Shown in pieces: positions 128 through 57,071 of a DNA stretch of 58,998 bases (position 1 is the stretch's first letter; the number at the start of each line of letters is the position of its first letter). The stretch spans positions 1-58,998 of IMG/VR virus record IMGVR_UViG_3300025009_000015; one strand, given 5' to 3'. Under the pieces are notes generated by a model. That model was not told the DNA's origin and did not search any database. It saw only the letters and a program-made list of their open reading frames with translations. The position numbers and the translations under genes were made by a program. Source of the stretch: a virus (Duplodnaviria; Caudoviricetes).

Positions 128-2715
128 GCCCCCCTCGTCGATATAATGGTCTCGAGCCGTTTCGCCGCGAGCGTGGCGCGCCCCGGCCCCCAGGCGTCGT
201 ATGGGCACTCGTACAAAAACCCATCATGCTCGAACGCCCAGGGGCGCGCACCGTAGAGAGGGGACAGCCTCCCTGCCACGACCTCTACGGCCTCGTGAGC
301 TATGTCTCCGGGCCAGAGCTCGAGCACACTCTGAGCTATCCGACACTGCTCCTCTCGGACCCCAGGCATCATCCCCGTGTAACACTCCGTCGCGACGTGA
401 AAAAGCACGTCCCCCGCGAGGTCGGCGATACCACCCTGGAACGGTTGATTTCTCCCTGCCGTGTAGTTGCACCCCCCTCGTCTCCGGCCAGAGACCCGCT
501 GCGTGAAGGTGAACGTCGAGTCGCCGGAGCACCTGTCCCCGACCCAGCGCCCCGCTTTCCTCCCCTCCGGGAACGTGTCGTTGAGGACGTCAATCACCTC
601 CTGCGCCTGCTCGACAGTCGTCTCAACGCCGTACCCACGCGCGGCTTTCGCCAGTGTCGGCGCGCCCATCCCTCCCATCCAGCCGAACACGCCGGGGGAT
701 TTCGCGTACTGGCGCATGACCTTCACGACCAGGTACCCGACCACAAATCGGGCATCCTCGTCGGACAGGTGAGTCATGTGCTCAGACGATACACAACCTG
801 ACGTATCCCTACTACTCATGAAGGAATGAAGGTAAGGACACAGGTGGAGGTCCAGGATCGAGCACTGTCTGAGCGTAATCTCGTCCAGAGCCCAAGTCTG
901 TGCCTGATCTAACACGTGCCTGGGAATCCCACACCGATCGATTACTCCAGGTCCATCCTTTTTCCACGCAGAGGCCTGCTCATAGCTCACCCCCGCGAGC
1001 TGCGGGAAGTGTATCGCGGTCCAGAGGTGTGGGTCCCGCCCCTCCCGCAAAATTTCGGCCATACGGGAGAACCCGAACGTCTCGAGGCACCACTGCGCCC
1101 ACGCGACACACTCGGCCTGGTCGATGTCTGCTGCGAGGATCGCCCACCCGTCCCGGGCCACGAAGCACTCCCGGATTCCCCCGAACGCGGGGAGGTTCTG
1201 CACGTTCGGCCCGGAGCAACTGGTCCGGCCGGACTCTTTCGGGATCCAATACCTGGGCTGGATGGGATGTATCGTCCCGTGGATGAGCTGCGGGACGTAG
1301 GTGGTCCGGAGCTTCGTGACTCTCCCGAGCGCGGCCAGGATGAGCAGGACGGGGTCGCCGGACTCTTCCAGGACGGCGCGGCCCCACGAGACCTGCCCCT
1401 CCGGGAACGACTTCGAGGGGGGCGTCAGGGGGGTGACGATCGCACCCGTCCGCTTGTCACGGTACGACGTCCCCCCTCCGGCCGGGTCGATCTTCGAGAT
1501 GACCTGTCCCTCGCACTTCCCTGCGATGACGCCGGTCTCCTTCGAGAACGGGAGCGTGAACTCCTGCCCTGTTCTATCGAGGCAGATCATCCCCAGGTGC
1601 TGGCCCGCCAACTCCTTCTCTTCGTCCGTCTTTGCGTCCCGCCACGCGAACCGGACCAGGGGATACGGCTCGAGCTGGTTCGATATCGCGGCGACGAGGG
1701 GCAGGTCTACGTTCGAGGGGTCCTTGACGATGGCCTCGAGAATCCTCCCCTGCTCCGGTGTCAGGTCCCCGGAGTCCTCTTCATCCTCTCCCTCCGACTC
1801 TTCGTCCTCTCCGTCGCCCTCGGTCAGGAGCCGGAGCCTCGCTGAATCGATCCCGAGCCCCGCGTACACCCCGGCGACACGCTCCTGGACTTTTTTTCTC
1901 TTTTGGCCGACGTACGGTTTCCCCTGCTTCGTCTTTGCCTCCCCGAGCCCCGTGCTCAGCAGCAGAGACTCGACGGCCTGGCTGGCCAGCTCTATCCGCG
2001 CGGTCGTCGTCGCAACGCGCTCCGGGTCCGTCCGCATACCCCAGGCGGAACACAGATGTAGTGCCCACGCGGCGGCGATCTTCCGCCCCTCGTCCACGAT
2101 GAGCCAGGGTTGGTCCGGGTCCGTGTACCCGTCCCTCTCGGCCTCCGCCTGCTGATTCTCATAGATCAGCATACTGATTCTGGGGTCATCGACCGCGTAT
2201 CTGACTGCGTCCTCAGGCCACAGGTCGATCGGGATACCCAGCAGCTCGCTGTACCGGAGCCGCCAGGCGTCGGGGTTTTTCTTGTCCGCGCTGATGTCGA
2301 GGCCTAATCTCCTCTTCGCGCAAGCCCCTAGGTTCGTCAGGGGTTTCTTGTTCCCCTCCCGGGGGTCGGAGGACAGGACCCCCAGCGCCAACAGCAGGAG
2401 GCTCTCCCGCATCATCGTACAGGAGATCCGGCCCTCCGCGAGCGCTCGGAACACCAGGGCCATCAGCTCGAACTGGTAGCGCTCCGCCTCCGACGCGACC
2501 ATGACCGCCAGGTCGAACGTAACGTTGTGCCCTCCGATGGCGACGTCCCGATCTTCGAGCTGCGCTCGGAACCACTCGACACCGTCCCTCGGTGACAGGA
2601 TGTTCCGTGTCAGCTCGGATCCTTGCCGCTCGGTCCACGTCAGGCAGACGAGCGGGGGCGTCAGGTTCCCGGGGATGATTGTCGCGGTCTCAGTGTCGAA
2701 GTTCCGGAGAATCAA
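1..2715 (-). CDS. polA: DNA polymerase family A with 3'-5' exonuclease (~905 aa; stop codon at 58869-58871 across the junction)
   Basis: Translated by hand; absent from the ORF track. TTG start after GAGG. ExoI DTET, ExoII GHNVTFD, ExoIII YAVDD, SGRTSCSGPNVQNLP, motif A ADIDQAE, motif B RQYAK..FG, NQPFQG, motif C EHDG. No in-frame stops. Confidence 0.93.
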   Translation of the reverse strand, partial: MILRNFDTETATIIPGNLTPPLVCLTWTERQGSELTRNILSPRDGVEWFRAQLEDRDVAIGGHNVTFDLAVMVASEAERYQFELMALVFRALAEGRISCTMMRESLLLLALGVLSSDPREGNKKPLTNLGACAKRRLGLDISADKKNPDAWRLRYSELLGIPIDLWPEDAVRYAVDDPRISMLIYENQQAEAERDGYTDPDQPWLIVDEGRKIAAAWALHLCSAWGMRTDPERVATTTARIELASQAVESLLLSTGLGEAKTKQGKPYVGQKRKKVQERVAGVYAGLGIDSARLRLLTEGDGEDEESEGEDEEDSGDLTPEQGRILEAIVKDPSNVDLPLVAAISNQLEPYPLVRFAWRDAKTDEEKELAGQHLGMICLDRTGQEFTLPFSKETGVIAGKCEGQVISKIDPAGGGTSYRDKRTGAIVTPLTPPSKSFPEGQVSWGRAVLEESGDPVLLILAALGRVTKLRTTYVPQLIHGTIHPIQPRYWIPKESGRTSCSGPNVQNLPAFGGIRECFVARDGWAILAADIDQAECVAWAQWCLETFGFSRMAEILREGRDPHLWTAIHFPQLAGVSYEQASAWKKDGPGVIDRCGIPRHVLDQAQTWALDEITLRQCSILDLHLCPYLHSFMSSRDTSGCVSSEHMTHLSDEDARFVVGYLVVKVMRQYAKSPGVFGWMGGMGAPTLAKAARGYGVETTVEQAQEVIDVLNDTFPEGRKAGRWVGDRCSGDSTFTFTQRVSGRRRGGCNYTAGRNQPFQGGIADLAGDVLFHVATECYTGMMPGVREEQCRIAQSVLELWPGDIAHEAVEVVAGRLSPLYGARPWAFEHDGFLYECPYDAWGPGRATLAAKRLETIISTRGAFWFPDVPIRSTAAYARRWIKDRKTGREIKPVYDTDGYLAPME

Positions 2716-2741
2716 GGTAACCTCTCGAAGTTAAAAGGAAA

Positions 2742-2810
2742 TGTGCCTGCAAGCAGTCTATTCCGCCGCCTCGTCACGTGCCGAGTGCTCGACAATCGCA
2801 GGCAGGCACA
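2742..2810 (-). ncRNA. Degenerate cloverleaf (tRNA-like) RNA
   Basis: 9-bp terminal stem TGTGCCTGC/GCAGGCACA with three internal hairpins, including CTCG-GCACGTGA-CGAG; flanked by U-rich spacers. Confidence 0.4.
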
Positions 2811-2821
2811 AAAGAGAAATG

Positions 2822-2893
2822 TGTGTCCGTGAGGAGTCGAACCTCAGCCTGCCGATTAACAGTCGGTTGTGCGACCCAACACACCTCGGACAC
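2822..2893 (-). tRNA. tRNA-Asn(GTT), non-canonical at positions 8 and 14
   Basis: Acceptor GTGTCCG/CGGACAC-A, D arm GTGT/GCAC, anticodon arm CCGA-CTGTTAA-TCGG, T arm TGAGG-TTCGACT-CCTCA; no encoded CCA. Confidence 0.75.
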
Positions 2894-3001
2894 GGAAAAA
2901 ATGCCACCGGATCGTCGCTCTACCAGTGCTCCCCGGTGACCTGTACACCTCGCAGCATGCATACGCAGATCGAGTCCACTCTGCCGGTCTGGTGTAGGAG
3001 G

Positions 3002-3063
3002 TGGTGGGGCCGATGGAGTCCTCCTCCACAATCTGACGACATCGTGCGCCGAACAACAGCCCC
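3002..3063 (-). ncRNA. Miniature tRNA-like RNA ending in ACCA
   Basis: GGGGCTG...CGGCCCC-ACCA acceptor stem with two internal hairpins and no D arm. Confidence 0.35.
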
Positions 3064-3126
3064 AAAAATGATTATTGTACCACCGGTCAGACTTTCCAGC
3101 CGGCGGCGCCCTGGGTTGCGGACGGT

Positions 3127-3702
3127 TCAGAACGGAGCGCTCTCAGTCGAGACGGTCGCGGGGGACGACTGCTCGGACTCCTCTTCGTCGTACGGATACC
3201 AGTTCATGGGCGTGAAATCACCTCCCGCTTTCGTTTTGATCTTCTCGAGCACCTCTGCCCTGACGAGGATCCCTTCGTACTTCAGCGGATCGTTCTCCAC
3301 AGCTTCCAGAAATTCCTTGTCGATCTCACTCTGCGGCGTCCCAGAAACGGCCTCGAAATGCGCCTTCATCGCGCCGATTTTGGTCGAGACGTTCTCGTCT
3401 GCAGGGGACATTTTGGACACCCTCGACCTGCGAGAACCCTCTGGGTGTTTTTCCGTTCCACCCTCAACCACTTCGAACTCGATCACGAACTTTGAAACCT
3501 TTACGGTTGAGTCCTTGGACTTCTTCGATGTCCCTAGTACGTGTCGCACGATGCGTAACGTGTACCGCCCAGGGGTATCGAAATACGGCGCGTTCCCAAA
3601 ACCCTCGGCATCTCTGATCATCTTGTCCGAATACGAGTCGAATGTTCCCACTTCCTGTCCCTTTCTGTTCTCATTCTCGTTTTGCCCTGTCCCGCGGGCC
3701 AC
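3127..3702 (-). CDS. Putative ssDNA-binding protein (acidic tail ending ESAPF)
   Basis: Upstream of polA, beta-rich, acidic C-terminus with terminal PF. Confidence 0.55.
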   Translation of the reverse strand: MARGTGQNENENRKGQEVGTFDSYSDKMIRDAEGFGNAPYFDTPGRYTLRIVRHVLGTSKKSKDSTVKVSKFVIEFEVVEGGTEKHPEGSRRSRVSKMSPADENVSTKIGAMKAHFEAVSGTPQSEIDKEFLEAVENDPLKYEGILVRAEVLEKIKTKAGGDFTPMNWYPYDEEESEQSSPATVSTESAPF

Positions 3703-3733
3703 GGACTCCAGGAATCTGGAGTAGACTGTTCAC

Positions 3734-3776
3734 ACTGTATACATTTCATCGATGAAAAAGCAAGAGAAAAATTCAC
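3734..3776 (-). promoter_or_regulatory. Boxed sigma70-like promoter
   Basis: Minus strand GTGAATTTTT-CTC-TTGCTT...TATACAGT. Confidence 0.55.
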
Positions 3777-3970
3777 TCATCGTATTCTTGAAGTTCTTCT
3801 TTAAGTGCCTCGATCTTCCACTCGAAGTCTGAGATCTTCTCTTCGAGTTCTGCGATCTTCTCGTCCCTCTGCTGGGCTTCTTTCTCGAACCCTAGAATTC
3901 GCTCGTCTTTTTCCTCGAGCTCTTTTTCCAGCATGCGCAGATTCTCCCGTATGTCCTCAATCCATCTCAT
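3773..3970 (-). CDS. Small coiled-coil protein
   Basis: 65 aa E/K-rich heptads; RBS GAGG. Confidence 0.7.
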   Translation of the reverse strand: MRWIEDIRENLRMLEKELEEKDERILGFEKEAQQRDEKIAELEEKISDFEWKIEALKEELQEYDE

Positions 3971-3998
3971 GATTCACCTCACATAAAAAAAGAAAATT

Positions 3999-5801
3999 TC
4001 ACTCCCACGTCCCGACGATCAACCTCTGCAGGGTCCCACTGTAATGCAGGTACCTCGCGTCGACCAGGGCACGGTCAACCGACTCGTCCAGCCGGTCGAC
4101 GTGCGTCCAGAGGTCGACCTCCACCTCGTCCCGCTGCTGACCGGGACGGTGGATACGCCCGATGAGCTGCTCGACGTGCGACCCGGACGGGGTCGGGCAG
4201 GGTATCACCATCCGCCCGAACGACTCCAGGTCGTGCCCCTCCCCATGACTGTGCTCCGAGAGGCAGCAGCTCACCCCGTCATTCGGGGGCTCCTGCCCTC
4301 GGAGGAACACTCGGGCGCCGAGACCCTGGAGGGCTCGAGCAACGGCCCGGTGGTGGTACCAGACGATCGTCCCCGGAGTCTCCAGCTCGTCGACCATCCA
4401 CCCGACCACGTCAGCTGTGAGCCACACGGGCTCGACGGGAATCACCTCTTCCCCTCCCCCCGGGTGGTCGTCGAGGTACGCTATCCTGTACCTGTCCCGG
4501 ACCAGGCACCAGCCCTGGTACGCGGCGACCAGCCCGTGGGGCAGTCTCCCTGGGTCGGACTCCGCGATACGCGCGACGTGCCCGGGGGTGTCTACTCCGT
4601 CGCGCTCCCCCTGCCCCCCTATCACCAGGTAGTCACTCAGCTCGCTCGAGTAGAACGACCTGGCGCCCATCCAGTCCTTGTCCGGCTCCCCCTTCCGTGT
4701 GCGTTCCCACGCCCACCTGTAGAAAAACCCCATCGCCAGGGTCTCCGACGCGCGGGTGACCTCGACGTCCCCGAGGGCTGCGGCGCCGCTCGAGCCAGGT
4801 ATCAGCCCCGTGTCGGTCATCTCCCGGATCGCGCTCCGGATCTCCTGAGGACAGTCCCTGTGGACGCGCCGCAGGATGACCGACGCATCGCAGGACATGG
4901 TCTGGAGCGTCACCACCCCGGGGGTCGCTCGGACCCTCTTGTCCAGCGCCTCACGGCAGAGCTGGAGACGCGCGGAGGCGGATTCGTCCCACCGCTCCGG
5001 GCGCTCCCCCCAGGCGTCCACGATGGGGCGGAACATGCCCCAGTCAGTCGCCTCCGGGACGCCACGGCTCCCCAGGACGTTGTGCCAACTCTTGAGCTCA
5101 TTCTCGTCTATAGGGAGGTAGGAGCCGTCTCGGAGCGCGAGCTCGACCAGGTGCGCGGAGTCCTTCGGGGACCGCTTGTCGAACGTTCCGCTGAGCCATA
5201 CCCAGCGGATCTCCGGTCGTCTCTTTGCAACCCGGAGCACCCTCCTCGTGCGTCCTGCTTGGAGTCTAGCCAGTCTATGCGCCTCGTCTCCAATCACCAG
5301 ATCAGCCCCCAGCTCGTCGAGCAGCTCCGGGTTGACGCTTACCTCCTCGTAGCTGTGCAGGAGGATATCCGACCGCACCCGCCAGTGTCGCTTGATCTCC
5401 GGCATCGCCCGGAGCGTCTTCGACCTGAGCTTCGCAGGGACGAGCAGCACCGGTCGCTTGCACGGAAGGATGGAGGGCAGCAGGAGGGAGATCAAGGTCT
5501 TGCCCCCGCCGACTCCTATCCTACCCACGACCAGCCTGTCAGGATGGACGCGGGACTGGACGAGCGCCTCCGTCAGCGCTTCGGCCTGGACAGTCAGCAG
5601 GTGCTGACAGGACCCGTCCGAGCAGTCGCACCGCTCCCGCTTCCCCGCGTGCGCCGTCCCGGGCCAGCCTTTATCATGCGGCTGGACCACCTGCGGGCGG
5701 GCACTCAGGAGTGACTCGAGCCTGGCCCGAGCGTTCCCTGGGTGCGCCCCCCGCAGGGGGAGGGACAGGATGCGGCTGGTCTCGGAGGGGCGTGTCCTCA
5801 T
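3999..5801 (-). CDS. SF2 (DEAH/SNF2-like) helicase
   Basis: GVGGGKT, DEAH, LSGT, EQLIGRIHRPGQ. Confidence 0.9.
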   Translation of the reverse strand: MRTRPSETSRILSLPLRGAHPGNARARLESLLSARPQVVQPHDKGWPGTAHAGKRERCDCSDGSCQHLLTVQAEALTEALVQSRVHPDRLVVGRIGVGGGKTLISLLLPSILPCKRPVLLVPAKLRSKTLRAMPEIKRHWRVRSDILLHSYEEVSVNPELLDELGADLVIGDEAHRLARLQAGRTRRVLRVAKRRPEIRWVWLSGTFDKRSPKDSAHLVELALRDGSYLPIDENELKSWHNVLGSRGVPEATDWGMFRPIVDAWGERPERWDESASARLQLCREALDKRVRATPGVVTLQTMSCDASVILRRVHRDCPQEIRSAIREMTDTGLIPGSSGAAALGDVEVTRASETLAMGFFYRWAWERTRKGEPDKDWMGARSFYSSELSDYLVIGGQGERDGVDTPGHVARIAESDPGRLPHGLVAAYQGWCLVRDRYRIAYLDDHPGGGEEVIPVEPVWLTADVVGWMVDELETPGTIVWYHHRAVARALQGLGARVFLRGQEPPNDGVSCCLSEHSHGEGHDLESFGRMVIPCPTPSGSHVEQLIGRIHRPGQQRDEVEVDLWTHVDRLDESVDRALVDARYLHYSGTLQRLIVGTWE

Positions 5802-5998
5802 GACTGGTCACCGTCCGGAGGTGTGGTCTTCCCTTCGACGGTCTGCTCCACAGTCTTCGCAGGGAAAAAATGGACGTTATCGACCAATGGATCTTGTATC
5901 CCCTTCCGACACTCGACGATGCCTCTGCGAAGAGACTCCCGCTCGATCGACTTGCGAACCATCTTTGCCTTATGCTCGAGTGTTTTCTTGGTCTTCAT
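5798..5998 (-). CDS. Hypothetical protein
   Basis: ATG after GGAG; stop overlaps the helicase start. Confidence 0.6.
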   Translation of the reverse strand: MKTKKTLEHKAKMVRKSIERESLRRGIVECRKGIQDPLVDNVHFFPAKTVEQTVEGKTTPPDGDQS

Positions 5999-6020
5999 TT
6001 CGTGCTCCAAAAAGGTAAAA

Positions 6021-6119
6021 GTCGGTGCCAGGCCTCTCTCCTGGTGGGGACAAAATGCAGGACAGGACAATCGATTTACACGCTCCCTGCACGACTCCCC
6101 ATGTTTTCACCACACCGAC
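6021..6119 (-). ncRNA. tRNA-like RNA with extended central arm
   Basis: 7-bp GTCGGTG/CACCGAC stem stacked on a 5-bp/7-nt hairpin CCAGG-AGAGAGG-CCTGG; long arm TGGGGA..TGCAGG/CCTGCA..TCCCCA. Confidence 0.45.
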
Positions 6120-6135
6120 ACAAAAGAAAAAAGGA

Positions 6136-6208
6136 TCTCTCGTCCGGGAATCTAACCCAGGCCTCCTGTCACGTGTACAGGTATGCGATACAACTACACC
6201 GACGAGAG
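6136..6208 (-). tRNA. Degenerate tRNA (nominal anticodon ACG, Arg-like)
   Basis: Acceptor CTCTCGT/ACGAGAG-A, anticodon arm CCTGT-ACACGTG-ACAGG, T arm CTGGG-TTAGATT-CCCGG; lacks U8, U33 and purine 37. Confidence 0.55.
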
Positions 6209-6210
6209 AA

Positions 6211-6325
6211 AGGGGGGGCCTGCCACGCCGCGGGGGCGGAAAACTTGGAGCGCCGTCGCGGACGCTCCCCGGGCGGAGGCCCCCCTCTGGTTCGCTGCGA
6301 GATGACCACCGCGACGGCCAGAGGG
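6211..6325 (-). ncRNA. GC-rich stem-closed RNA structure(s)
   Basis: GGGGGGCCT/AGGCCCCCC stem with GGAGCG/CGCTCC hairpin; adjacent CCCTCTGG/CCAGAGGG hairpin. Confidence 0.3.
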
Positions 6326-6332
6326 TCGGAGT

Positions 6333-8303
6333 CTATTTCGTGCCGACGACCAGAGACGAGCGCCGATCGAGCCAGAAGTGCCGGGTATCCTTCCAGAGCT
6401 TGTCCGAGCTGTCGACGACGATCACACAGGACGCCGGGGGGGACGCGATCAATCGCTCGGTCAGGAGTCCTGGAAGCAGGTACCCAGGTTCAACGAGCAG
6501 GGCGTCGGGGACCTTTTTCGCTTCGGCGATGGACTTGAGGTACGGCCGGAGGACGTCAGAGAATTCCCGCACGTCTGCCCGCCCGACTGGTCGACAGTCG
6601 ACGAAGAGCTCGTACCTGCTGCCAGGTCTCGGCTCCGGCTTCTGCTCGGGCTTCTCTTCCGGCTTCTGCTCGGGCTTCTCTTCCGGCTTCTGCTCGGGCT
6701 TCTCTTCCGGCTTCTGCTCGGGCTTCTCTTCCGGCTTCTGCTCGGGCTTCACCTCAAGCTCGGACTTCTGCTCTTCCTTCCGGACGAGCTGCGCGAGGAT
6801 CTGCGCCGCGACCGTCTTCCCGATCCCTGGAACCCTGGTCAGGTCGATCAGCTTGACGGCCCCGCTCCGGAGTGACTCGAGCGTGTGCCCCGCTGTGACG
6901 ATGTTCCGCGCCCGGTTCTCGGTCAGCCCGACCGACGTCAGCTCCTTGACCTTCCCCTCGTCCACCGCGGGAGTCGTCCCCTCCGTCTGGGCTGCGACCT
7001 GCTGTGCTGCGTCTCCGAAGATCTCCTCTTCGGCCGACTTCGTCTCGGCCACCGGGAGGGAGGCAGCCTCTGCCACCGGAGCGACCTCCGCGTCCCAGGC
7101 CTCGAGCTGCGGGATATAGATTGTCCTGAGTCCGACGATGTCCATTTCCTCGCACCCGGGGGCCTTCCCCTCCGCCCTGTGCGTCCCGGACGGGGCACTG
7201 AGCTGGTGGAACCCGGGGGCGGACTCGGCCTCGTCGAGCTTGTCGCCGACGTAAAATTTCCACGCACCGGAGAAACACCGGAGCTCCCAGTGCTTCCCGT
7301 GGCGGTCACCCTGGATCGCCAGGTACTGTTTCCCGCCTGGCATGATCGTCTTTCTGCTGCGCAACACTGCGTCCATCGTCCTCTCCTCGTATTGTGCCGC
7401 GTCGGGCGGCGAGATAAGATTTTTCACACTTTCCTCCCGTGCGGCAGGGGCCGTCCCCTCCGCGATGCTGTCTATCGTCCTCCCGGCTCCCCCCGAACCT
7501 CTCCCGGCCCCCGCGTCGAGCAGCGCCCCGAGCGAGTCCGAGACGTGGACCGCCCTCGCCCCGTGACACCGAGCATAAAACGGGCACTCGGATCCATACC
7601 ACCTCTCACACGTCGCGCGCTCTGCCGCAGGCAGCTCGAGCGTGCTCTCCTCTGCCAGTGCTGCGCGCATGGTCGCGACCAAAGGGCGGTCGCGCTCCTC
7701 CAGCTCCGTCGCTTGATTGATCCCGACCCCCCGGACCAGGGCTTGCGCTCGGTACGGTGCCGTCCGCTCGACGCTGACCTGTGAGACCTCGAACAGGTTC
7801 GGGACGGGGCGGTTCGCCTCCCGGTGGATCCCGACCGCGTAGGCGATCGTCTGCCGGTCGCTGTCGAGCTGCTCGAGCGTCTTCGCCCACTTGAGATCCT
7901 TGACGACCTTCAGATCAGTTACCCGGATCTGCCCTTTTTTCTGCGCACGGTTCAGTGGACTCCAGACCGTGCTCGGCCCGGTCAGGAGGTCGATCTTCCC
8001 GATGAGCGGAGCCCCCGCCCAGTCGCACCGGACCCACCGCTGGACCTGGACGCAGGACTGTCCTGGGATCGGGTAGTGCTTCGCGACGACCGCAGCGGCC
8101 CCGGAGACCTGCGAGGGCTTCCCGAGCATGTACTCCTCTACCTGCCGGTCGATGTCCGTCCCGATGTCGATCACCCGCTGGCGGTCGGGGGGGATCTCCA
8201 CTTTAACGCCGATCACGTGCTGCCAGTGCCAGTGCCGGAGGCACGTGTCCGCGTCGTTCAGCTTCGAGACGGAAATCATGAAAGGCTTTTTGTCCATGCT
8301 CAC
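6333..8303 (-). CDS. Cas4/AddB-like PD-(D/E)XK exonuclease with HhH domain and KPE(Q/E) repeats
   Basis: SVSKL..TC, GKIDL, TDLK, QTIAY, CERWYGSECPFYARC; VPGIGKTVA helix-hairpin-helix. Confidence 0.8.
   Translation of the reverse strand: MSMDKKPFMISVSKLNDADTCLRHWHWQHVIGVKVEIPPDRQRVIDIGTDIDRQVEEYMLGKPSQVSGAAAVVAKHYPIPGQSCVQVQRWVRCDWAGAPLIGKIDLLTGPSTVWSPLNRAQKKGQIRVTDLKVVKDLKWAKTLEQLDSDRQTIAYAVGIHREANRPVPNLFEVSQVSVERTAPYRAQALVRGVGINQATELEERDRPLVATMRAALAEESTLELPAAERATCERWYGSECPFYARCHGARAVHVSDSLGALLDAGAGRGSGGAGRTIDSIAEGTAPAAREESVKNLISPPDAAQYEERTMDAVLRSRKTIMPGGKQYLAIQGDRHGKHWELRCFSGAWKFYVGDKLDEAESAPGFHQLSAPSGTHRAEGKAPGCEEMDIVGLRTIYIPQLEAWDAEVAPVAEAASLPVAETKSAEEEIFGDAAQQVAAQTEGTTPAVDEGKVKELTSVGLTENRARNIVTAGHTLESLRSGAVKLIDLTRVPGIGKTVAAQILAQLVRKEEQKSELEVKPEQKPEEKPEQKPEEKPEQKPEEKPEQKPEEKPEQKPEPRPGSRYELFVDCRPVGRADVREFSDVLRPYLKSIAEAKKVPDALLVEPGYLLPGLLTERLIASPPASCVIVVDSSDKLWKDTRHFWLDRRSSLVVGTK
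6634..6750. repeat. Perfect 24-bp tandem repeat (~4.9 copies) encoding KPEQKPEE
   Basis: Unit TCCGGCTTCTGCTCGGGCTTCTCT. Confidence 0.95.
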
Positions 8304-9310: not shown

Positions 9311-9352
9311 AACATAAATCGAGCAAAGGGTAAAGTCAAGAAAATAATTCAC
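9311..9352 (-). promoter_or_regulatory. Boxed sigma70-like promoter
   Basis: GTGAATTATTTTC-TTGACT-N17-TATGTT. Confidence 0.75.
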
Positions 9353-9508
9353 GGAAGATGGGGATTGATTTTTCGGCGGATTGAAGTCAAAATAAAAGAG
9401 CCCGGTGCCGCTGGACACGGCGACCGGGCGAAGGTAGCGGGCGAGATCAGAGCAAATTATACCTGCCCCCGCCCCGAAAATCAAGCAACAAAAAATGAAG
9501 AGGTGAGC

Positions 9509-11950: not shown

Positions 11951-12490
11951 ATCGATTTCATTACGTTTTCCTCTCTTTTTATCTAGTTGACTTTTGATTC
12001 TGAATCCGATACAGAATGGATTTTATTGGGTTTTTCGACTTGTTGACTATATCACACGTTGTTAATAGTCTATATTGCGCTGTTTTATAGGCCAGGAGCA
12101 TGTTTTTCTATCTCGTTGAATTCGTTAACTTTGCTCATACACTATACAGTGTTTTGTCGATCTATCGATCTATCAGTGATCTACCTGATGAATTATTCGA
12201 TAGATCGAAAAAATCCTTTATTTTTCGATAAGTTAGTGCCATTCGATCTATCATTCTATCTCTTTTTTTATATATTAAATATATAGTATAGAGGGGGTGG
12301 CACACATAGCACTGAGTAGTCAGGGGGAGAATAGAGGCCTGTAGGGTAAATAAACGCGAAATGCCTAGATCTGCTAGATCTGCTAGATCGACCTTTGATA
12401 TCATTGAAGAAATAGCTGTTTTTTCGATCTATGTGAGGATTTTAGGGATAGAATGAGGTAGATCTTGTTTTCACTCTGAACAGATTTTTT
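11951..12490. other. AT-rich non-coding region, candidate replication origin
   Basis: Strongest AT island, directly after the primase-helicase; GATC/ATCGAT-rich; (CTAGATCTG)x~3 at ~12365-12390. Confidence 0.55.
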
Positions 12491-16393: not shown

Positions 16394-16466
16394 ACTATAG
16401 TCAACCCTACCAGAAAGATCAAGATAATAATTCACAGGTAGCAGTTTTTTTCTCGGTGCGTACACT
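16394..16466. promoter_or_regulatory. Divergent promoter unit
   Basis: Minus: GTGAATTATT..TTGATC-N17-TATAGT; plus: TACACT at 16461. Confidence 0.75.
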
Positions 16467-17516: not shown

Positions 17517-17641
17517 AGCCGAGTGTCCCACCAGGAAATTCTCAGATCGTGTCGATCGCACAGGCCGTGAGTGTTCCAGATGGGACTCTCGGGTATATCA
17601 CGGCGTCGAATGAGAGACACACAAGGAGCCTCTTCGATTGA
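17513..17641 (+). CDS. 42-aa ORF homologous to the start of the MTase variable region
   Basis: PSVPPGNSQIVSIAQAV resembles PGVPPGSSRGITFREAV of the downstream MTase. Confidence 0.45.
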   Translation: MKPSVPPGNSQIVSIAQAVSVPDGTLGYITASNERHTRSLFD

Positions 17642-18954
17642 TGTATCAACCTGCCCCTACCATGGTGAAAACCGGTAACAGTAGGATGATGACGGGGAAC
17701 AGGGTAGAGGCGATCTCCCCGATCGAGGCCACGAGGTTCTCCTCCTTTCCAGACCAGTACAAATTCCCAGGACGAGCGTCCGAAGTGATCGAGCGCGTCG
17801 GTAACTCCGTCCCTCCCCTCCTCATGTTTCGCGTCGCTCAGCATATCAAGGAGAACCTCTTCATGCACCAGATCCAGAAGATGACTTCCAGCAGGAGGCC
17901 TTACGTCGAAGTGCTCGACGACCTGTGGACACGACACCTGGCCCAGCGTGAGCCAGACGCGCCGACCGTGGTTTCCCTCTTCGCGGGGGCCGGGGGCTCC
18001 TCCCTGGGGTACTCCGCTGCGGGGTTCAGGGAGCTGCTCGCCGTCGAGTGGGACAAGCACGCGTGCCAGTGCCTGAGACAGAACTTCCCGGGGTTGACTG
18101 TCTACGAGGGGGACATCTCGAAACTCACCACGGAGCGGGCGCTCGAGCTGGCAGGTATCACTCCGGGTGAGCTGGACGTGCTCGACGGCAGTCCACCATG
18201 CCAAAGTTTCAGCACGGCCGGGAAGCGGGACATGAATGATCCGAGGGGGCAACTCTTCCGGGAGTACGTCAGGATGCTTGGCATATTCAGGCCAAAAGTT
18301 TTTGTTATGGAGAATGTCTCAGGGATGGTCAAGGGCAAGATGAAGCTCATCTTCGCCGAGATCCTGCGGACGCTGCGGGGGGCAGGGTACGAGGTCGGGG
18401 CTTGGCTCCTGAACGCGATGCACTACGGCATCCCTCAGAGCAGGGAGCGCATGATCTTCGTGGGGGTCCGGTCGGACCTGGTGGGGGCCGGCCCAGGAGT
18501 ACCCCCGGGATCTAGTAGGGGGATCACGTTTCGGGAAGCAGTAGAAGGGTGTCCTGACGTAGGGGGGAAAGTACTTGGGGAATTTCTCCAGAGGATGGCA
18601 CAGAGTCAGCCGAGGGGGCTCTGGAGTAGTCATCTAGGGATCTGGCGGAGATTAAAGGGGAACGACGCCAGCTGTATGAGCACGAAATGGTGCTCCTGGG
18701 ATGACACCCCGGGAACAGTCACCAAAGAATGGATTTCCCTGTCGGGGATGATTCATCCATGGCGTGAGAGATATCTGTCTGCGGGGGAAGTGAAGAGAAT
18801 AGGGTCCTGGCCGGATCAATATTTCTTTGTGGGGAAATTTGGTGATATAGTCCGGAGGGTAGGAAACTCCGTCCCTCCCCTCCTGATGGACAGGATCTCC
18901 CAGCACGTCCGCAGGGAGATCCTCTCGAAGCTTAAACATCAGGCCCCTTTTTAG
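17641..18954 (+). CDS. DNA cytosine-C5 methyltransferase with extra N-terminal motif IX-X module
   Basis: LFAGAGG, GSPPCQSFS, ENV, QSRER, GNSVPP (twice); ends HQAPF. Confidence 0.95.
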   Translation: MYQPAPTMVKTGNSRMMTGNRVEAISPIEATRFSSFPDQYKFPGRASEVIERVGNSVPPLLMFRVAQHIKENLFMHQIQKMTSSRRPYVEVLDDLWTRHLAQREPDAPTVVSLFAGAGGSSLGYSAAGFRELLAVEWDKHACQCLRQNFPGLTVYEGDISKLTTERALELAGITPGELDVLDGSPPCQSFSTAGKRDMNDPRGQLFREYVRMLGIFRPKVFVMENVSGMVKGKMKLIFAEILRTLRGAGYEVGAWLLNAMHYGIPQSRERMIFVGVRSDLVGAGPGVPPGSSRGITFREAVEGCPDVGGKVLGEFLQRMAQSQPRGLWSSHLGIWRRLKGNDASCMSTKWCSWDDTPGTVTKEWISLSGMIHPWRERYLSAGEVKRIGSWPDQYFFVGKFGDIVRRVGNSVPPLLMDRISQHVRREILSKLKHQAPF

Positions 18955-20628: not shown

Positions 20629-20703
20629 AGTATAATCAGTATAAAAAGGTCAGTCAAGAAAATAATTCACAAAATCGATCTTTTTTTCACGGGTGGCTAT
20701 ACT
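20629..20703. promoter_or_regulatory. Divergent promoter unit
   Basis: Minus: box-TTGACT-N17-TATACT; plus: TATACT at 20698, 6 nt before the terL ATG. Confidence 0.75.
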
Positions 20704-22992: not shown

Positions 22993-23065
22993 ACTATAAT
23001 CAACCCCACTAGAAAAATCAACAAATAATTCACAGCTCGGAAAAATAATCGAGATAGTCTACACT
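22993..23065. promoter_or_regulatory. Divergent promoter unit
   Basis: Minus: box-TTGATT-N17-TATAGT; plus: TACACT at 23060. Confidence 0.75.
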
Positions 23066-39576: not shown

Positions 39577-39617
39577 ACTATAATCAGGCAAGAGAAAAAA
39601 TCAACAAAATAATTCAC
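39577..39617 (-). promoter_or_regulatory. Boxed sigma70-like promoter
   Basis: GTGAATTATTTTG-TTGATT-N16-TATAGT. Confidence 0.7.
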
Positions 39618-46209: not shown

Positions 46210-46355
46210 TCTCCAAGTTCGTGTTTCAATGTCTCAATCTCAGTATGTATCTACTATAAGCTACCCCTAGATCAGAATCAAGAAAATAATTCACACATCA
46301 CAAAAATAATTCACAGCTCGGAAAATCTCGGCAGGTAGTCTACAGTACAGCCATG
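46210..46355. promoter_or_regulatory. Divergent promoter unit with doubled box (repeat of 52119-52264)
   Basis: Minus TTGATT-N17-TATAGT; two AATAATTCAC boxes 20 nt apart; plus TACAGT-N6-ATG. Confidence 0.8.
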
Positions 46356-48649: not shown

Positions 48650-50056
48650 CTATTTATGGAGCACCACGTAAACGGTGTTGATCCGCGTCCCGGACGACGC
48701 GAACGACTCCATGGGGAGATCCCGGAACGGAGACCCGTAGCAGTCGCTGTGCTTCTTCGCCCACGCACGGAAAGTGTCGTGCGCCTTGCTCTCCCCGAAC
48801 TCGACGGTGGCGGGGAGGATGGCGACCAGCTTCCCCCCGGGGCGCAGGAACTCGAACCCCAGCAGAACGTGTTGCATGTAGAGAGTCCCGTGGAACGGGG
48901 GGTTCATGACGACGTGGGAGTACGCGGGGACGGGAATCATTCGCAGGAAGTTAGCGTGTAGGACGGTCAGTCGCTTGTGCGCGCGAGACAGCTCTTGCAG
49001 CACCAGGACCCTCCCCGCGTCTACCTCCACGGCGTCGACTCCCGCCCCCGTCTTGAGCAGGTGGCGGACGATGTTCCCCGTACCTGCTGACGGTTCGAGT
49101 ACCCGACTCCCCTCGTTGATGTACAGGTCAGACAACAACTTTTCGACCACTGCTTCGGGCGTCGGGTAGAACCCCAGGTCTTTGCAGAGTACCGTAGAGC
49201 GCTCTCGGATGTCCTTGTCTGTCACGTCCGCCGGGACGCCGTCCGGAAGCACCTCCCCGTAATAGTCTGCGAGCACACCGTTCGCTTTCCCGACCAGGTC
49301 GTCTCGGGTGAACCAGAGATGCGCGTTCCCGTTCATGTACGTGCGGATCCGGAAATACTCCGACTCTGTGCAGGACTGCCGGGGGTTGAGGTTCCGTCCG
49401 CGCCCCTCGTCGATGGCGTTGATCAGCCCGCGGGGGTCGGGCTTGTTCCCGTCCAGGACGGCGAACACCCGCTCGACGTCGCAGATCGTGTCCCTCATGC
49501 TGTAGTGGCCCCAGTTCCCCCGCTCGTTGAAGACGTTGGTCAAGATGATTCTCGCCCCGATCTTGAAGGCGTCGTGGCTCCGGAACCTCCTGTCCAAGTC
49601 GATGAAAGCACGGGCCAGCCCTCGCTGAAAGATCAGGTAGGCGTCCTTCCGCAGGCCATCGAACGTCGCGTAGATCGTGTCCTCCGACACCTCCGGTACG
49701 TCGTTGCAGAGCTGATCGTACAGCTCATCTTTGGCGGTCCTGTCCATCATGTGCTCCATGCCGGTCAGGCACAGGAGGTTCATCCACACCCTGGCGTCGA
49801 CCTGCTGGCGGTACGCCTCGAAGCTCTTCTCTGGGTCGATCCCTTCGAAGAGCCTCTTGTACGCCTCCGACCTGCTGCGGTCGGACAGCGTGAACGTCGC
49901 CGCCCCGTGAGCCTGCTGCGCGTGCCGGTAGGACTGCTCGGCCAAGGCTTGGCCCTGTACCATGGCTGCCACGGCATCGCGCATCATGGTCATGGCTGCG
50001 TCCCGGTGAGCGCACACCTCGGTCACGGTCGTTCGGGGGATAAGGGCTGTCTCCAT
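48650..50056 (-). CDS. DUF4942 plus N6-adenine-type methyltransferase
   Basis: FYPTP, LEPSAGTG, MNPPF, FASSGTRINT; N-terminal FQRG..., NGNAHLWF. Confidence 0.85.
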   Translation of the reverse strand: METALIPRTTVTEVCAHRDAAMTMMRDAVAAMVQGQALAEQSYRHAQQAHGAATFTLSDRSRSEAYKRLFEGIDPEKSFEAYRQQVDARVWMNLLCLTGMEHMMDRTAKDELYDQLCNDVPEVSEDTIYATFDGLRKDAYLIFQRGLARAFIDLDRRFRSHDAFKIGARIILTNVFNERGNWGHYSMRDTICDVERVFAVLDGNKPDPRGLINAIDEGRGRNLNPRQSCTESEYFRIRTYMNGNAHLWFTRDDLVGKANGVLADYYGEVLPDGVPADVTDKDIRERSTVLCKDLGFYPTPEAVVEKLLSDLYINEGSRVLEPSAGTGNIVRHLLKTGAGVDAVEVDAGRVLVLQELSRAHKRLTVLHANFLRMIPVPAYSHVVMNPPFHGTLYMQHVLLGFEFLRPGGKLVAILPATVEFGESKAHDTFRAWAKKHSDCYGSPFRDLPMESFASSGTRINTVYVVLHK

Positions 50057-50091: not shown

Positions 50092-50165
50092 ACTATAATC
50101 AACCCGCACGGAAAGATCAACATAATAATTCACAGCTCGGAAAATCTCAGCAGGTAGACTACACT
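50092..50165. promoter_or_regulatory. Divergent promoter unit
   Basis: Minus: box-TTGATC-N17-TATAGT; plus: TACACT at 50160. Confidence 0.8.
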
Positions 50166-52118: not shown

Positions 52119-52264
52119 TCTCCAAGTTCGTGTTTCTCAATCTCAATCTCAATCTGTATCTACTATAAGCTATCCACGATTCAGAGTCAAGAAAATAATT
52201 CACAAAACCTAAAAATAATTCACAGCTCGAAAAAATCTCCCGGGTAGTCTACAGTACAGCCATG
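52119..52264. promoter_or_regulatory. Divergent promoter unit with doubled box (repeat of 46210-46355)
   Basis: Minus TTGACT-N17-TATAGT; two boxes; plus TACAGT-N6-ATG. Confidence 0.8.
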
Positions 52265-56411: not shown

Positions 56412-57071
56412 TCAACCCTCCGGCCTCATGTATTTTTCGCAGTCCACGTATATGGTATCACAAGAGCCGGACCACTCCGGCTCGAAGGTAAAGATCCCGT
56501 GGTCGTCTCCGGGGCTCCCTAGATGCCACCCGGTCGGGACGGATGCGTCCCGGAACGCTGACGGGGACTTCCCCTGCCGAGCCCTCCGCGCGTTCACCTC
56601 GAGCGCGTAGGCCTCCTCAACCTCGAACGCCACCCGATGCTTCGGCAAAACCGCGCGCTTCGGGGAGACTGGCCAGCTCACCTGTTGCATCACTCCACAC
56701 CTGAGCAGGAGTGAGACGTCTCCCCCCGGGCCGCACAGCTCGAGGCACCGCAGGAGCCACCGCTGGACGTCGCCGAACGGGGGGTTCGAGACGATGGAGA
56801 GGGGGTCGCCGATAGGGGAGGGGACTATCAGCGGTCGGAACAGGTCCTCCCTGGCTACACTCTGAGATTTCGGATCGACGTCGAACATCCAGATCGCGCC
56901 GAACTCTTCTCCGAGTCGACCGTCCCCGGCCCCCACGTCGACTATCCTGCTCGGACACCGGGGGGTATGGTATTCCACCCAGAGGCGGACCAGCCAGCCT
57001 GGTGTGTAGTAGACGCCATTCGGCGACTGTTCCGCTTTTGGGAGGGGGTTTTTTCTGCTGGGTCCTACCAC
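56412..57071 (-). CDS. Small N6-adenine/N4-cytosine DNA methyltransferase
   Basis: YYTPGWLV, DVGAGDG, SNPPF. Confidence 0.8.
   Translation of the reverse strand: MVGPSRKNPLPKAEQSPNGVYYTPGWLVRLWVEYHTPRCPSRIVDVGAGDGRLGEEFGAIWMFDVDPKSQSVAREDLFRPLIVPSPIGDPLSIVSNPPFGDVQRWLLRCLELCGPGGDVSLLLRCGVMQQVSWPVSPKRAVLPKHRVAFEVEEAYALEVNARRARQGKSPSAFRDASVPTGWHLGSPGDDHGIFTFEPEWSGSCDTIYVDCEKYMRPEG

Follow-up and report, generated by a model that had tools for sequence, protein, structure and literature searches.

What kind of element fills the long gap just upstream of the DNA polymerase gene (polA) of a phage known from its genome sequence? The sequence is the complete IMG/VR virus record IMGVR_UViG_3300025009_000015, which measures 58,998 bp, carries direct terminal repeats and has ~62% G+C; the window analysed here is this whole stretch. 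An initial annotation described minus-strand positions 2742-3126, between a gene labelled "ssb-like" and polA, as a processed array of tRNA mimics or decoys rather than normal decoding tRNAs. This description is partly right. Judged by its sequence, the locus appears to be a cluster in which a phage tRNA has tRNA-like companions and which punctuates a replication operon. The reading that we tentatively prefer, at a little under an even chance, is that one decoding tRNA is transcribed together with modules that are tRNA-like or derive from tRNAs, and that host tRNA-processing nucleases excise the parts of this cluster and in so doing also cut the replication mRNA. The best-supported novelty is a hidden, intact, non-standard tRNA together with a duplicated module that ends in ACCA.

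Layout of the gap upstream of polA

The operon is read from the minus strand in the order nuclease, gap 2, 66-amino-acid (aa) open reading frame (ORF), helicase-like gene, 65-aa ORF, 191-aa ORF, gap 1 and PolA. Gap 1 covers 411 nucleotides (nt), 2716-3126; it begins where ORF 3127-3702(-) stops and runs up to the TTG start codon of PolA at 2715. All seven ORFs of at least 40 aa inside it had negative coding log-odds (-0.02 to -0.30 per codon), compared with +0.22 to +0.38 for six flanking genes. These values rule out small proteins encoded in gap 1 and bear out the claim that ~390 nt here lack a credible coding sequence. The coordinates first given for the individual units proved accurate. The parts of gap 1, from 5' to 3' on the minus strand, are:

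3071-3098 (-): weak sigma-70-like site, TGGAAA-16-AATAAT, the sole such site in gap 1
2980-3091 (-): E1 outer stem, 3079-3091 paired with 2980-2993 in the minimum free energy (MFE) fold of 2978-3092; encloses unit 1
3002-3063 (-): unit 1, a 62-nt GGGG...CCCCACCA minihelix (sequence, MFE fold, pair list and pattern statistics)
2903-3001 (-): unit 2, two hairpins, 2944-2996 and 2903-2940
2821/2822-2893 (-): tRNA-Asn(GUU) (ARAGORN Asn(gtt); Rfam RF00005)
2742-2810 (-): unit 4, 69 nt, with an 8-9 bp Watson-Crick closing stem
3064-3068, 2896-2901 and 2811-2820 (-): U-rich tracts (sequence)
2732-2741 (-): U-rich stretch separating unit 4 from the ribosome-binding site (RBS) of PolA

Closing stems and T-rich tracts do stand at the unit boundaries, as the initial annotation had it. 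In simulations, closing stems of at least 7, 8 and 9 bp arose at fixed ends with frequencies of 2.5e-3, 7e-4 and 2e-4, respectively. The two gaps make up 1.3% of the genome and hold 5 of its 60 minus-strand T-rich tracts (0.76 expected). We also scanned the genome for units of 55-115 nt closed by 7 or more base pairs and placed between a T-rich leader and a T-rich trailer. Five loci were returned, three of them in the gaps (tRNA-Asn, unit 4 and 6021-6119); of the other two, one lies antisense in an ORF and one in an AT-rich spacer near 12.1 kb. Based on these T-tract, closing-stem and genome-scan statistics, the modular layout of the gaps is not chance. The part of the description that did not stand is the "~100-nt paired unit", because unit 2 resolved into two separate, plain hairpins with no excess stability (folding z = +0.15). 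It is the weakest unit. Positions 2939-2948 (-) of unit 2 are perfectly complementary over 10 nt to 6173-6182 (-), in the 5' half of the anticodon arm at 6136-6208. By our estimate ~0.2 such matches are expected by chance; the link was rejected.

A tRNA-Asn with an ordinary score and an unusual core

Genome-wide, ARAGORN at default settings and Rfam each gave a single tRNA, tRNA-Asn(GTT). Its RF00005 match is full-length (model positions 1-71) and scores 51 bits, where the gathering score is 29. This is an ordinary tRNA score, an outcome named beforehand as one that would refute the reading as mimics or decoys, and it speaks against that reading for this unit. The reported core deviation is real: A and G stand opposite the consensus U8 and A14 in the Rfam alignment, so that these conserved core residues are missing, and position 21 is C. 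The cloverleaf has 20 of 21 pairs, with a mismatch at A27.C43. The anticodon loop is normal, the discriminator is A and CCA is not encoded. Asn accounts for 2.3% of phage codons, 81% of them AAC. Given this low usage, codon supply is no obvious reason for carrying the tRNA.

RF00005 was the sole family at gathering score in the Rfam search of the whole window; sub-threshold matches in the gaps were at chance level, and neither known bacterial tRNA-like small RNAs nor other Rfam families (e.g. Y RNA-like) reached gathering score. Units 1, 2 and 4, even when searched alone, gave no Rfam match at E <= 10 and no in-register ARAGORN call down to a 60% threshold.

A hidden cloverleaf in a second gap

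Gap 2 lies in the same operon and contains the following parts:

6000-6332 (-): gap 2, 3' of the PD-(D/E)XK/HhH gene 6333-8303 and 5' of the 66-aa ORF (start 5998) and the helicase-like gene
6216-6325 (-): 5'-most part of the gap, a pair of GC-rich hairpins (z -1.84); the second runs from GGGGCC to GGCCCC
6136-6208 (-): non-canonical tRNA (pair list, ARAGORN at 90% threshold, covariation with tRNA-Asn)
6021-6119 (-): E2 outer stem, 8 bp; inside it lie a small hairpin and the other GGGG...CCCCACCA element, 6042-6100

The sequence 6136-6208 folds into a standard 7/4/5/5 cloverleaf in which 21 of 21 positions pair (18 Watson-Crick, three G.U). ARAGORN missed it at default settings and called it "tRNA-Arg(acg)" at 6133-6209(-) when the threshold was lowered to 90%, where the genome yields four hits: tRNA-Asn, 6133-6209 and two false ones in coding regions. 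Rfam gave no match at E <= 10, for which the tool's filters may be partly responsible. Alignment with tRNA-Asn gave 39/72 identities with one gap (P = 0.0005, 2000 shuffles). The alignment leaves 41 of 42 cells paired, and in nine of the 21 pairs both bases differ between the two sequences with pairing kept (four in the acceptor stem, two in the anticodon stem and three in the T stem). One or two of 500 shuffles did as well, and sliding the partners by 1-3 columns left 0-2 such pairs. Because of its full pairing and the excess of double changes over these controls, we conclude that 6136-6208 is a genuine tRNA fold under pairing selection.

U33, a purine at position 37, G18-G19 and C56 are near-universal in decoding tRNAs. 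The 6136-6208 sequence departs at each of these points, with C33, U37, a D loop AGUUGUAUC without GG, and a T loop UUAGAUU (A56). Its anticodon loop is ACACGUG, with ACG as anticodon, and position 8 is C. It keeps G15-C48, G53-C61, A58 and an A at ~20. The complete cloverleaf with these retained residues, like the ARAGORN Arg(acg) call, could be taken to mean that 6136-6208 is a working, nuclease-resistant tRNA-Arg(ACG) and the cluster a small counter-defense set (Asn and Arg) with the other units as accessories. Codons of the A34 type (CGT, CGC and CGA) amount to 38% of Arg codons in 44 confident genes, and colicin D-type nucleases are among the enzymes proposed to drive phage tRNA evolution in the available part of PMC10264068. 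We nevertheless consider a working tRNA-Arg very unlikely, given the replacement of U33 and purine 37, the loss of C56 and G19, the lack of a Rfam match at E <= 10, and the fact that two of the four genome hits at the same ARAGORN threshold are false.

On the opposite strand, a 40-aa ATG ORF, 6183-6305(+), runs antisense to gap 2 and overlaps the 5' end of the tRNA. It scores +0.21 per codon, unlike every other gap ORF.

ACCA modules in both gaps

Unit 1 is the 62-nt ACCA-ending element recognized at the outset. Its 7-bp closing stem (GGGGCUG/CGGCCCC) is followed by ACCA, and a 6-bp hairpin with a 5-nt loop stacks directly on the stem. The 27-nt insert between stem and hairpin carries a 4-bp hairpin of its own, with CACGAUG in the loop. 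The unit thus consists of an acceptor-like stem, a stacked hairpin and an insert only, and does not form a cloverleaf with D and anticodon arms. Its similarity to tRNA-Asn has a shuffle P of 0.03. We rejected a transfer-messenger RNA (tmRNA): ARAGORN -m reported 0 genes in both gaps, the third pair of unit 1 is G3-C56 rather than G3.U70, and Rfam returned no tmRNA match.

The E1 outer stem encloses unit 1, and its 13-nt 5' strand (3079-3091) can instead form a local hairpin, 3079-3107. E2 in gap 2 has a common architecture with E1, an ACCA module inside an outer stem. It has U-rich tracts on its flanks and lies directly upstream of the RBS of the 66-aa ORF (start 5998); folding z is -1.79 for the whole and -2.11 for the inner element. 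Unit 1 and 6042-6100 align with P = 0.0035 against shuffles. The CCCCACCA string occurs seven times in the genome (2.85 expected), and the pattern GGGG-N40-65-CCCCACCA three times (0.55 expected), two of these in the gaps and the third antisense in a structural gene. The inner folds differ, and we therefore take the two modules as analogous or paralogous without defining a family. Both gaps thus contain the same two kinds of part, an ACCA module and a cloverleaf that is a tRNA or resembles one.

Both modules also share U(-1), G(+1) and ACCA (U3064/G3063...ACCA 3002-3005 and U6101/G6100...ACCA 6042-6045). U(-1) and G(+1) are determinants of the RNase P cleavage site. When compared with the sequence features of a model RNase P substrate (U-1 leader, G(+1)-C and 3' RCCA), unit 1 and the inner E2 element displayed all of them and are predicted substrates.

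Directly 3' of the unit 1 ACCA is CCUCC (2997-3001), which resembles the anti-Shine-Dalgarno core and can pair with GGAGGAGG of the unit's own hairpin (3019-3027, (-)). The ACCA element of gap 2 has GGAGAGAGG at the place where unit 1 has CCUCC.

Unit 4, a shared loop motif and the decoy hypothesis

Unit 4 ends 15 nt 5' of the PolA RBS. Of the "degenerate cloverleaf" originally proposed, the closing stem held up, and the cloverleaf itself, three short inner arms of 3, 4 and 5 bp around a central 8-nt loop (GCACGUGA), exists as a hand drawing alone. We built a covariance model (R1) from tRNA-Asn and 6136-6208 and ran it unfiltered over the genome. It returned the training pair at 93 and 91 bits and then 37 matches from 11.3 to 6.6 bits, with unit 4 at noise level among the latter. 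No three-sequence model was made, because MAFFT mis-registered unit 4 when given all three cloverleaf candidates. Pairwise similarity had P = 0.013 with tRNA-Asn and 0.0125 with 6136-6208. In view of the noise-level model score and the weak pairwise P, we regard the stem-closed structure of unit 4 as real and its descent from a tRNA as no more than plausible.

As previously noticed, the central loop of 2742-2810 contains CACGUG, as does that of 6136-6208. CACGTG was ruled out as an enriched genome motif by its chance frequency, with 17 sites against 18 expected, and 7 of the 17 have at least four flanking pairs by chance. Because the motif is at chance frequency and stem flanks are frequent, the common loop is a fact to which we attach no statistic.

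Several of these features could suggest that the non-canonical tRNA-like RNAs are made in bulk as decoys or mimics, which would bind or absorb host tRNA-directed defense nucleases or tRNA-binding factors and take no part in decoding. The 6136-6208 tRNA keeps every stem after losing decoding and elbow residues (C33, U37, A56 and no GG), which fits selection for shape, and this combination of intact shape and rewritten loop is what one would expect of a decoy. CACGUGA is common to both central loops. The available text of PMC12409363 documents tRNA-Asn(GUU) as a target of the PARIS nuclease AriB and raises viral tRNA competition as a possibility, and altered-loop phage tRNAs are proposed to resist anticodon nucleases in what is accessible of PMC10264068. 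Weighing against decoys are the chance frequency of CACGTG and its many stem-flanked copies, the lack of a demonstrable tRNA relationship for unit 4, and the failure to find tRNA repair or modification genes among the 69 + 30 ORF products scanned. We consider decoys a possible explanation, and an unlikely one. Less probable still is an extended form, a two-part counter-defense kit duplicated in two places of the operon, in which full-shape tRNA look-alikes with anticodon loops rewritten to CACGUG would occupy nucleases without decoding, ACCA minihelices would bait enzymes that read or cut tRNA 3' ends and host RNase P would release them all from the mRNA.

The units could also be what is left of a decaying tRNA cluster, an ancestral array from which only tRNA-Asn survives and the rest are functionless relics. 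This would explain why units 1, 2 and 4 fail every tRNA detector, why units 4 and 1 show weak residual similarity to tRNA-Asn, and why unit 2 is not structured beyond expectation. Stems would be expected to decay in relics, yet the closing stems here are 7-9 perfect pairs located exactly at spacer boundaries, 6136-6208 has held 21/21 pairs through nine double changes, and the ACCA module is present twice. Phage genomes are also under pressure to delete useless DNA. Overall, decay strikes us as rather improbable.

These comparisons uphold the term "tRNA-like" in part, through the true tRNA, its full-cloverleaf sister at 6136-6208 and unit 1, which has an acceptor/T-like coaxial helix with ACCA. 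Unit 4, at noise level, and unit 2, with no special structure, speak against it.

Transcription and proposed processing

The phage has 30 sigma-70-like sites, compared with ~9 expected. Many take the form TTGAyT-N17-TATAGT, and they are mostly found just upstream of minus-strand genes. Two such sites, 9311-9339 and 9456-9484, precede the operon, and neither gap contains this form. The site at 3071-3098 is far from the recurrent phage motif and is therefore probably not the main promoter. A search for intrinsic terminators in the gaps (GC-rich hairpin, 3-8 nt loop and T run) had no minus-strand match in 2400-6600. Read most simply, these results mean that transcription of the operon includes both gaps, in which case tRNA-Asn must be excised from an mRNA precursor.

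Across the genome, minus-strand sites of the wider form TTGAyT-N16/17-TATAGT (or TATAAT, TATACT or TATGTT) lie at the two positions above and at 16394-16422, 20629-20657, 22993-23021, 39577-39604, 46253-46281, 50092-50120 and 52162-52190. Several of the minus-strand ORFs that bear the motif are interleaved in the plus-strand structural module.

The stems and U-tracts could instead act on transcription, as partial terminators or attenuators that set the PolA level, with CCGGTGG half-site repeats as operators and the tRNA as a passenger. Each unit is indeed a stem followed by a U-rich run. The inverted repeats 3079-3107 and 2903-2940 share CCGGTGG-like arms, and the weak promoter-like site overlaps the former, whose 3' arm, along with the -10, is conserved in a diverged contig (see below). 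This form of control seems highly doubtful to us, as the terminator scan found no minus-strand terminator-like sites in either gap, the stems close multi-branched structures of 60-100 nt rather than simple hairpins, and a DNA-level explanation does not account for the 6136-6208 cloverleaf and the ACCA ends.

The anatomy of gap 1, with no phage-type promoter, U-rich junctions and the U(-1)/G(+1)/ACCA of unit 1, is consistent with the initial proposal of a processed array. We infer co-transcription and the points of cleavage, and likewise any role that the products may have. According to the processed-cluster model, the operon would be transcribed from the phage promoters near 9.3-9.5 kb. Its transcript would carry, in gap 2, the non-standard tRNA with intact cloverleaf and the second ACCA module, a set paralogous to that of gap 1, which has the tRNA-Asn with its unusual core, the ACCA minihelix in its outer stem and a stem-closed four-way unit. 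RNase P would cut at the U/G junction 5' of each closing stem, helped by ACCA at the two minihelices, and enzymes of the RNase E or RNase Z type would cut in the U-rich trailers. The cuts would release tRNA-Asn and several small stable RNAs (60-110 nt) and split the operon mRNA into three separately stable segments. The downstream segments would begin with stable structure, the last module of each gap being placed just 5' of the next RBS.

Cuts are expected at 3064/3063, 2894/2893, ~2810, 6209/6208 and 6101/6100, with secondary cuts in the U-rich trailers. These positions follow from the RNase P sequence features of unit 1 and the inner E2 element and from the acceptor-type stems that the tRNAs and unit 4 offer after U-rich leaders. 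The interaction of RCCA with RNase P RNA is described in the review PMC11143913, which also counts the phage RNAs M3 and C4 (an antisense RNA), together with intercistronic sites in polycistronic operon mRNAs, among the substrates of RNase P.

Related sequences and the weight of the evidence

A blastn search with 2600-3300 had no match in 50,697 phage records, and tblastn with PolA gave six records, all with <60% identity and <=44% coverage. No loci related to the ssb-like protein, PolA or the alignments A1 and A2 were found in viral, metagenome and genome contigs. Likewise, a 24-base pattern conserved in the diverged contig had no match in viral or metagenome contigs, and a 20-base stretch of the tRNA-Asn anticodon arm had none in genome contigs. 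Protein searches identified PolA relatives at 62, 57 and 57% identity on contigs of 3.6-5.6 kb and an ssb-like relative (49%) on a 941-bp contig. The PolA relative P0014, used as a query, led to three IMG/VR loci (27-43% identity over parts); these have 31-35% GC, 0 tRNAs and 0 Rfam hits, and for those reasons were dropped as unrelated low-GC phages.

The sequencing runs in which this genome occurs are groundwater and soil metagenomes, and the phage is an uncultured groundwater phage. Of the 18 runs listed, we compared four (X15-X18), all of them in the form of contigs. X15 agrees with the window at every position of 2500-3185. The sole diverged contig that touches the edge of gap 1 is a 189-nt contig from X17, ~10% diverged, which covers 3096-3250 and then 39 nt more. 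It keeps the 3' arm of hairpin 3079-3107 and the adjacent AT-rich stretch, with one G.U changed to G-C.

Two other X15 contigs differ from the window. One (depth 2.4) joins 5941 to 6009, skipping the 67 nt (5942-6008) with the start and RBS of the 66-aa ORF, and the second differs at 25 of 210 positions over 5373-5582. Given this deletion and these mismatches, a diverged strain co-occurs in the X15 sample.

Several observations count against a processed cluster. Units 1, 2 and 4 have no comparative support, the only diverged sequence being 3057-3250. In the R1 run, unit 4 scored 7.8 bits (E 3.9), rank 18 of 39, with proposed ends 2742-2809. The compensatory changes in 6136-6208 could merely reflect descent from two different tRNA species, and a transcript of its own might begin from the weak promoter-like site at 3071-3098. 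Ordinary gene junctions of the operon, e.g. 3761-3772 and 3980-3998, have T-rich tracts as well, so such tracts need not be nuclease sites. The folding z-scores of the gap units are not significant. Whole gap 1 has z = +0.71, and folding energies discriminate nothing here, the true tRNA having z = -1.6 and units 1 and 4 having -1.0 and -2.05, respectively. Finally, the contigs examined carry no strand or end information, and none of the runs listed for this sequence is an RNA run.

Genome setting and neighboring genes

PHROG and Pfam scans of 69 + 30 ORF products identified a contractile-tailed phage with terminase, portal, major head, sheath and baseplate genes, a minus-strand replication block at the left end and several DNA methyltransferases. 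The methyltransferase family matches are in three separate ORFs, 17638-18954(+), 48650-50056(-) and 56412-57071(-), one of them fused to DUF4942. No integrase was found among these products. The genes that border gap 1 are:

TTG start 2715, RBS GAGAGG 2721-2726 (-): PolA ORF (Pfam DNA_pol_A and phrog_17)
3127-3702 (-): 191-aa "ssb-like" ORF, with an acidic tail and terminal Phe

The "ssb-like" label is a guess. The 191-aa product matched no Pfam or PHROG family and falls in merely two clusters among 5.8 billion proteins. An ESM Atlas lead pointed to DUF669 on 12% of one cluster, the best hit of a PDB profile search was a designed protein (E = 0.021), and the AF2 model was unusable, with a mean predicted local distance difference test (pLDDT) score of 33.8.

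Upstream of gap 2, the terminator scan picked up four head-to-tail 24-nt copies at 6634-6722(+), inside ORF 6333-8303(-). This is probably a coding repeat, and the region gave a weak Pfam match to Trypan_PARP (acidic repeat). Elsewhere, the AT-rich spacer 12000-12300 has promoter-like sites on both strands and a stem-closed 76-nt unit, 12077-12152(+); a match at 12161-12203 is 35% GC. The spacer might be a regulatory region or an origin.

Significance and comparison with known systems

If the modules are excised as predicted, then tRNA-shaped RNA in this phage would both supply a tRNA for a single isoacceptor (Asn) and punctuate the replication operon. Such punctuation is well documented in organelles and anecdotal in phages. 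The 6136-6208 sequence indicates that standard finders miss intact, off-consensus phage tRNAs, a point of relevance to inventories of phage tRNAs and to the current question of whether such tRNAs replace host tRNAs, resist host tRNA-directed defenses or compete for them. Decoys, if real, would represent a new RNA-based anti-defense principle.

Altered-loop phage tRNAs (van den Berg 2023, PMC10264068; AriB/PARIS, PMC12409363) also deviate in or near the anticodon loop, and tRNA-Asn(GUU) is among the nuclease targets in the available parts of these papers. As portrayed there, they still look standard and are thought to decode, whereas 6136-6208 changes U33, position 37 and the elbow. The tRNA-Asn described here differs in the other direction, with a normal anticodon loop and a core that deviates (A8, G14). 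Allo-tRNAs and other non-canonical cloverleafs are likewise missed or mis-scored by standard tools, and some are proposed to be regulatory, according to the accessible portion of PMC5389517. Their acceptor/T branches, as given in that portion, are 8/4 or 9/3, in contrast to 7/5 in 6136-6208 and 8 + 5 with an unpaired base in unit 4, which fits neither.

The tRNA-like domain of tmRNA resembles unit 1 in its GGGG-initiated acceptor stem, stacked hairpin, encoded ACCA and lack of a normal anticodon arm. Unit 1 differs in that its 62 nt are too few to accommodate pseudoknots or a tag reading frame. Among non-tRNA substrates of RNase P (M3 RNA, P1/P7 C4 antisense RNA and operon sites), a stem, a 3' RCCA and a single-stranded leader suffice, as described in PMC11143913. 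The phage modules have no sequence similarity to these substrates, and their cleavage is predicted.

The plant mitochondrial t-elements, or tRNA punctuation, offer a parallel for the proposed function. Intercoding tRNA-like structures there serve as cis signals for RNase P and RNase Z and make mRNA ends, as the available text of PMC1920247 describes. Those systems are organellar and, in that text, have mapped ends, whereas the cuts in the phage operon are predicted and the host enzymes would be bacterial.

Finally, the tRNA clusters of T-even phages also combine tRNAs with other small RNAs, and T4 makes two extra stable RNAs. Both kinds of RNA there come from a common transcript, and their maturation involves RNase P together with further host enzymes, as set out in the available sections of PMC11143913, which also cover the T4 dimeric precursors; maturation of the RNAs considered here is predicted. 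The present cluster has no sequence relation to those of the T-even phages, and differs from them in lying inside a replication operon and in having one standard tRNA only.

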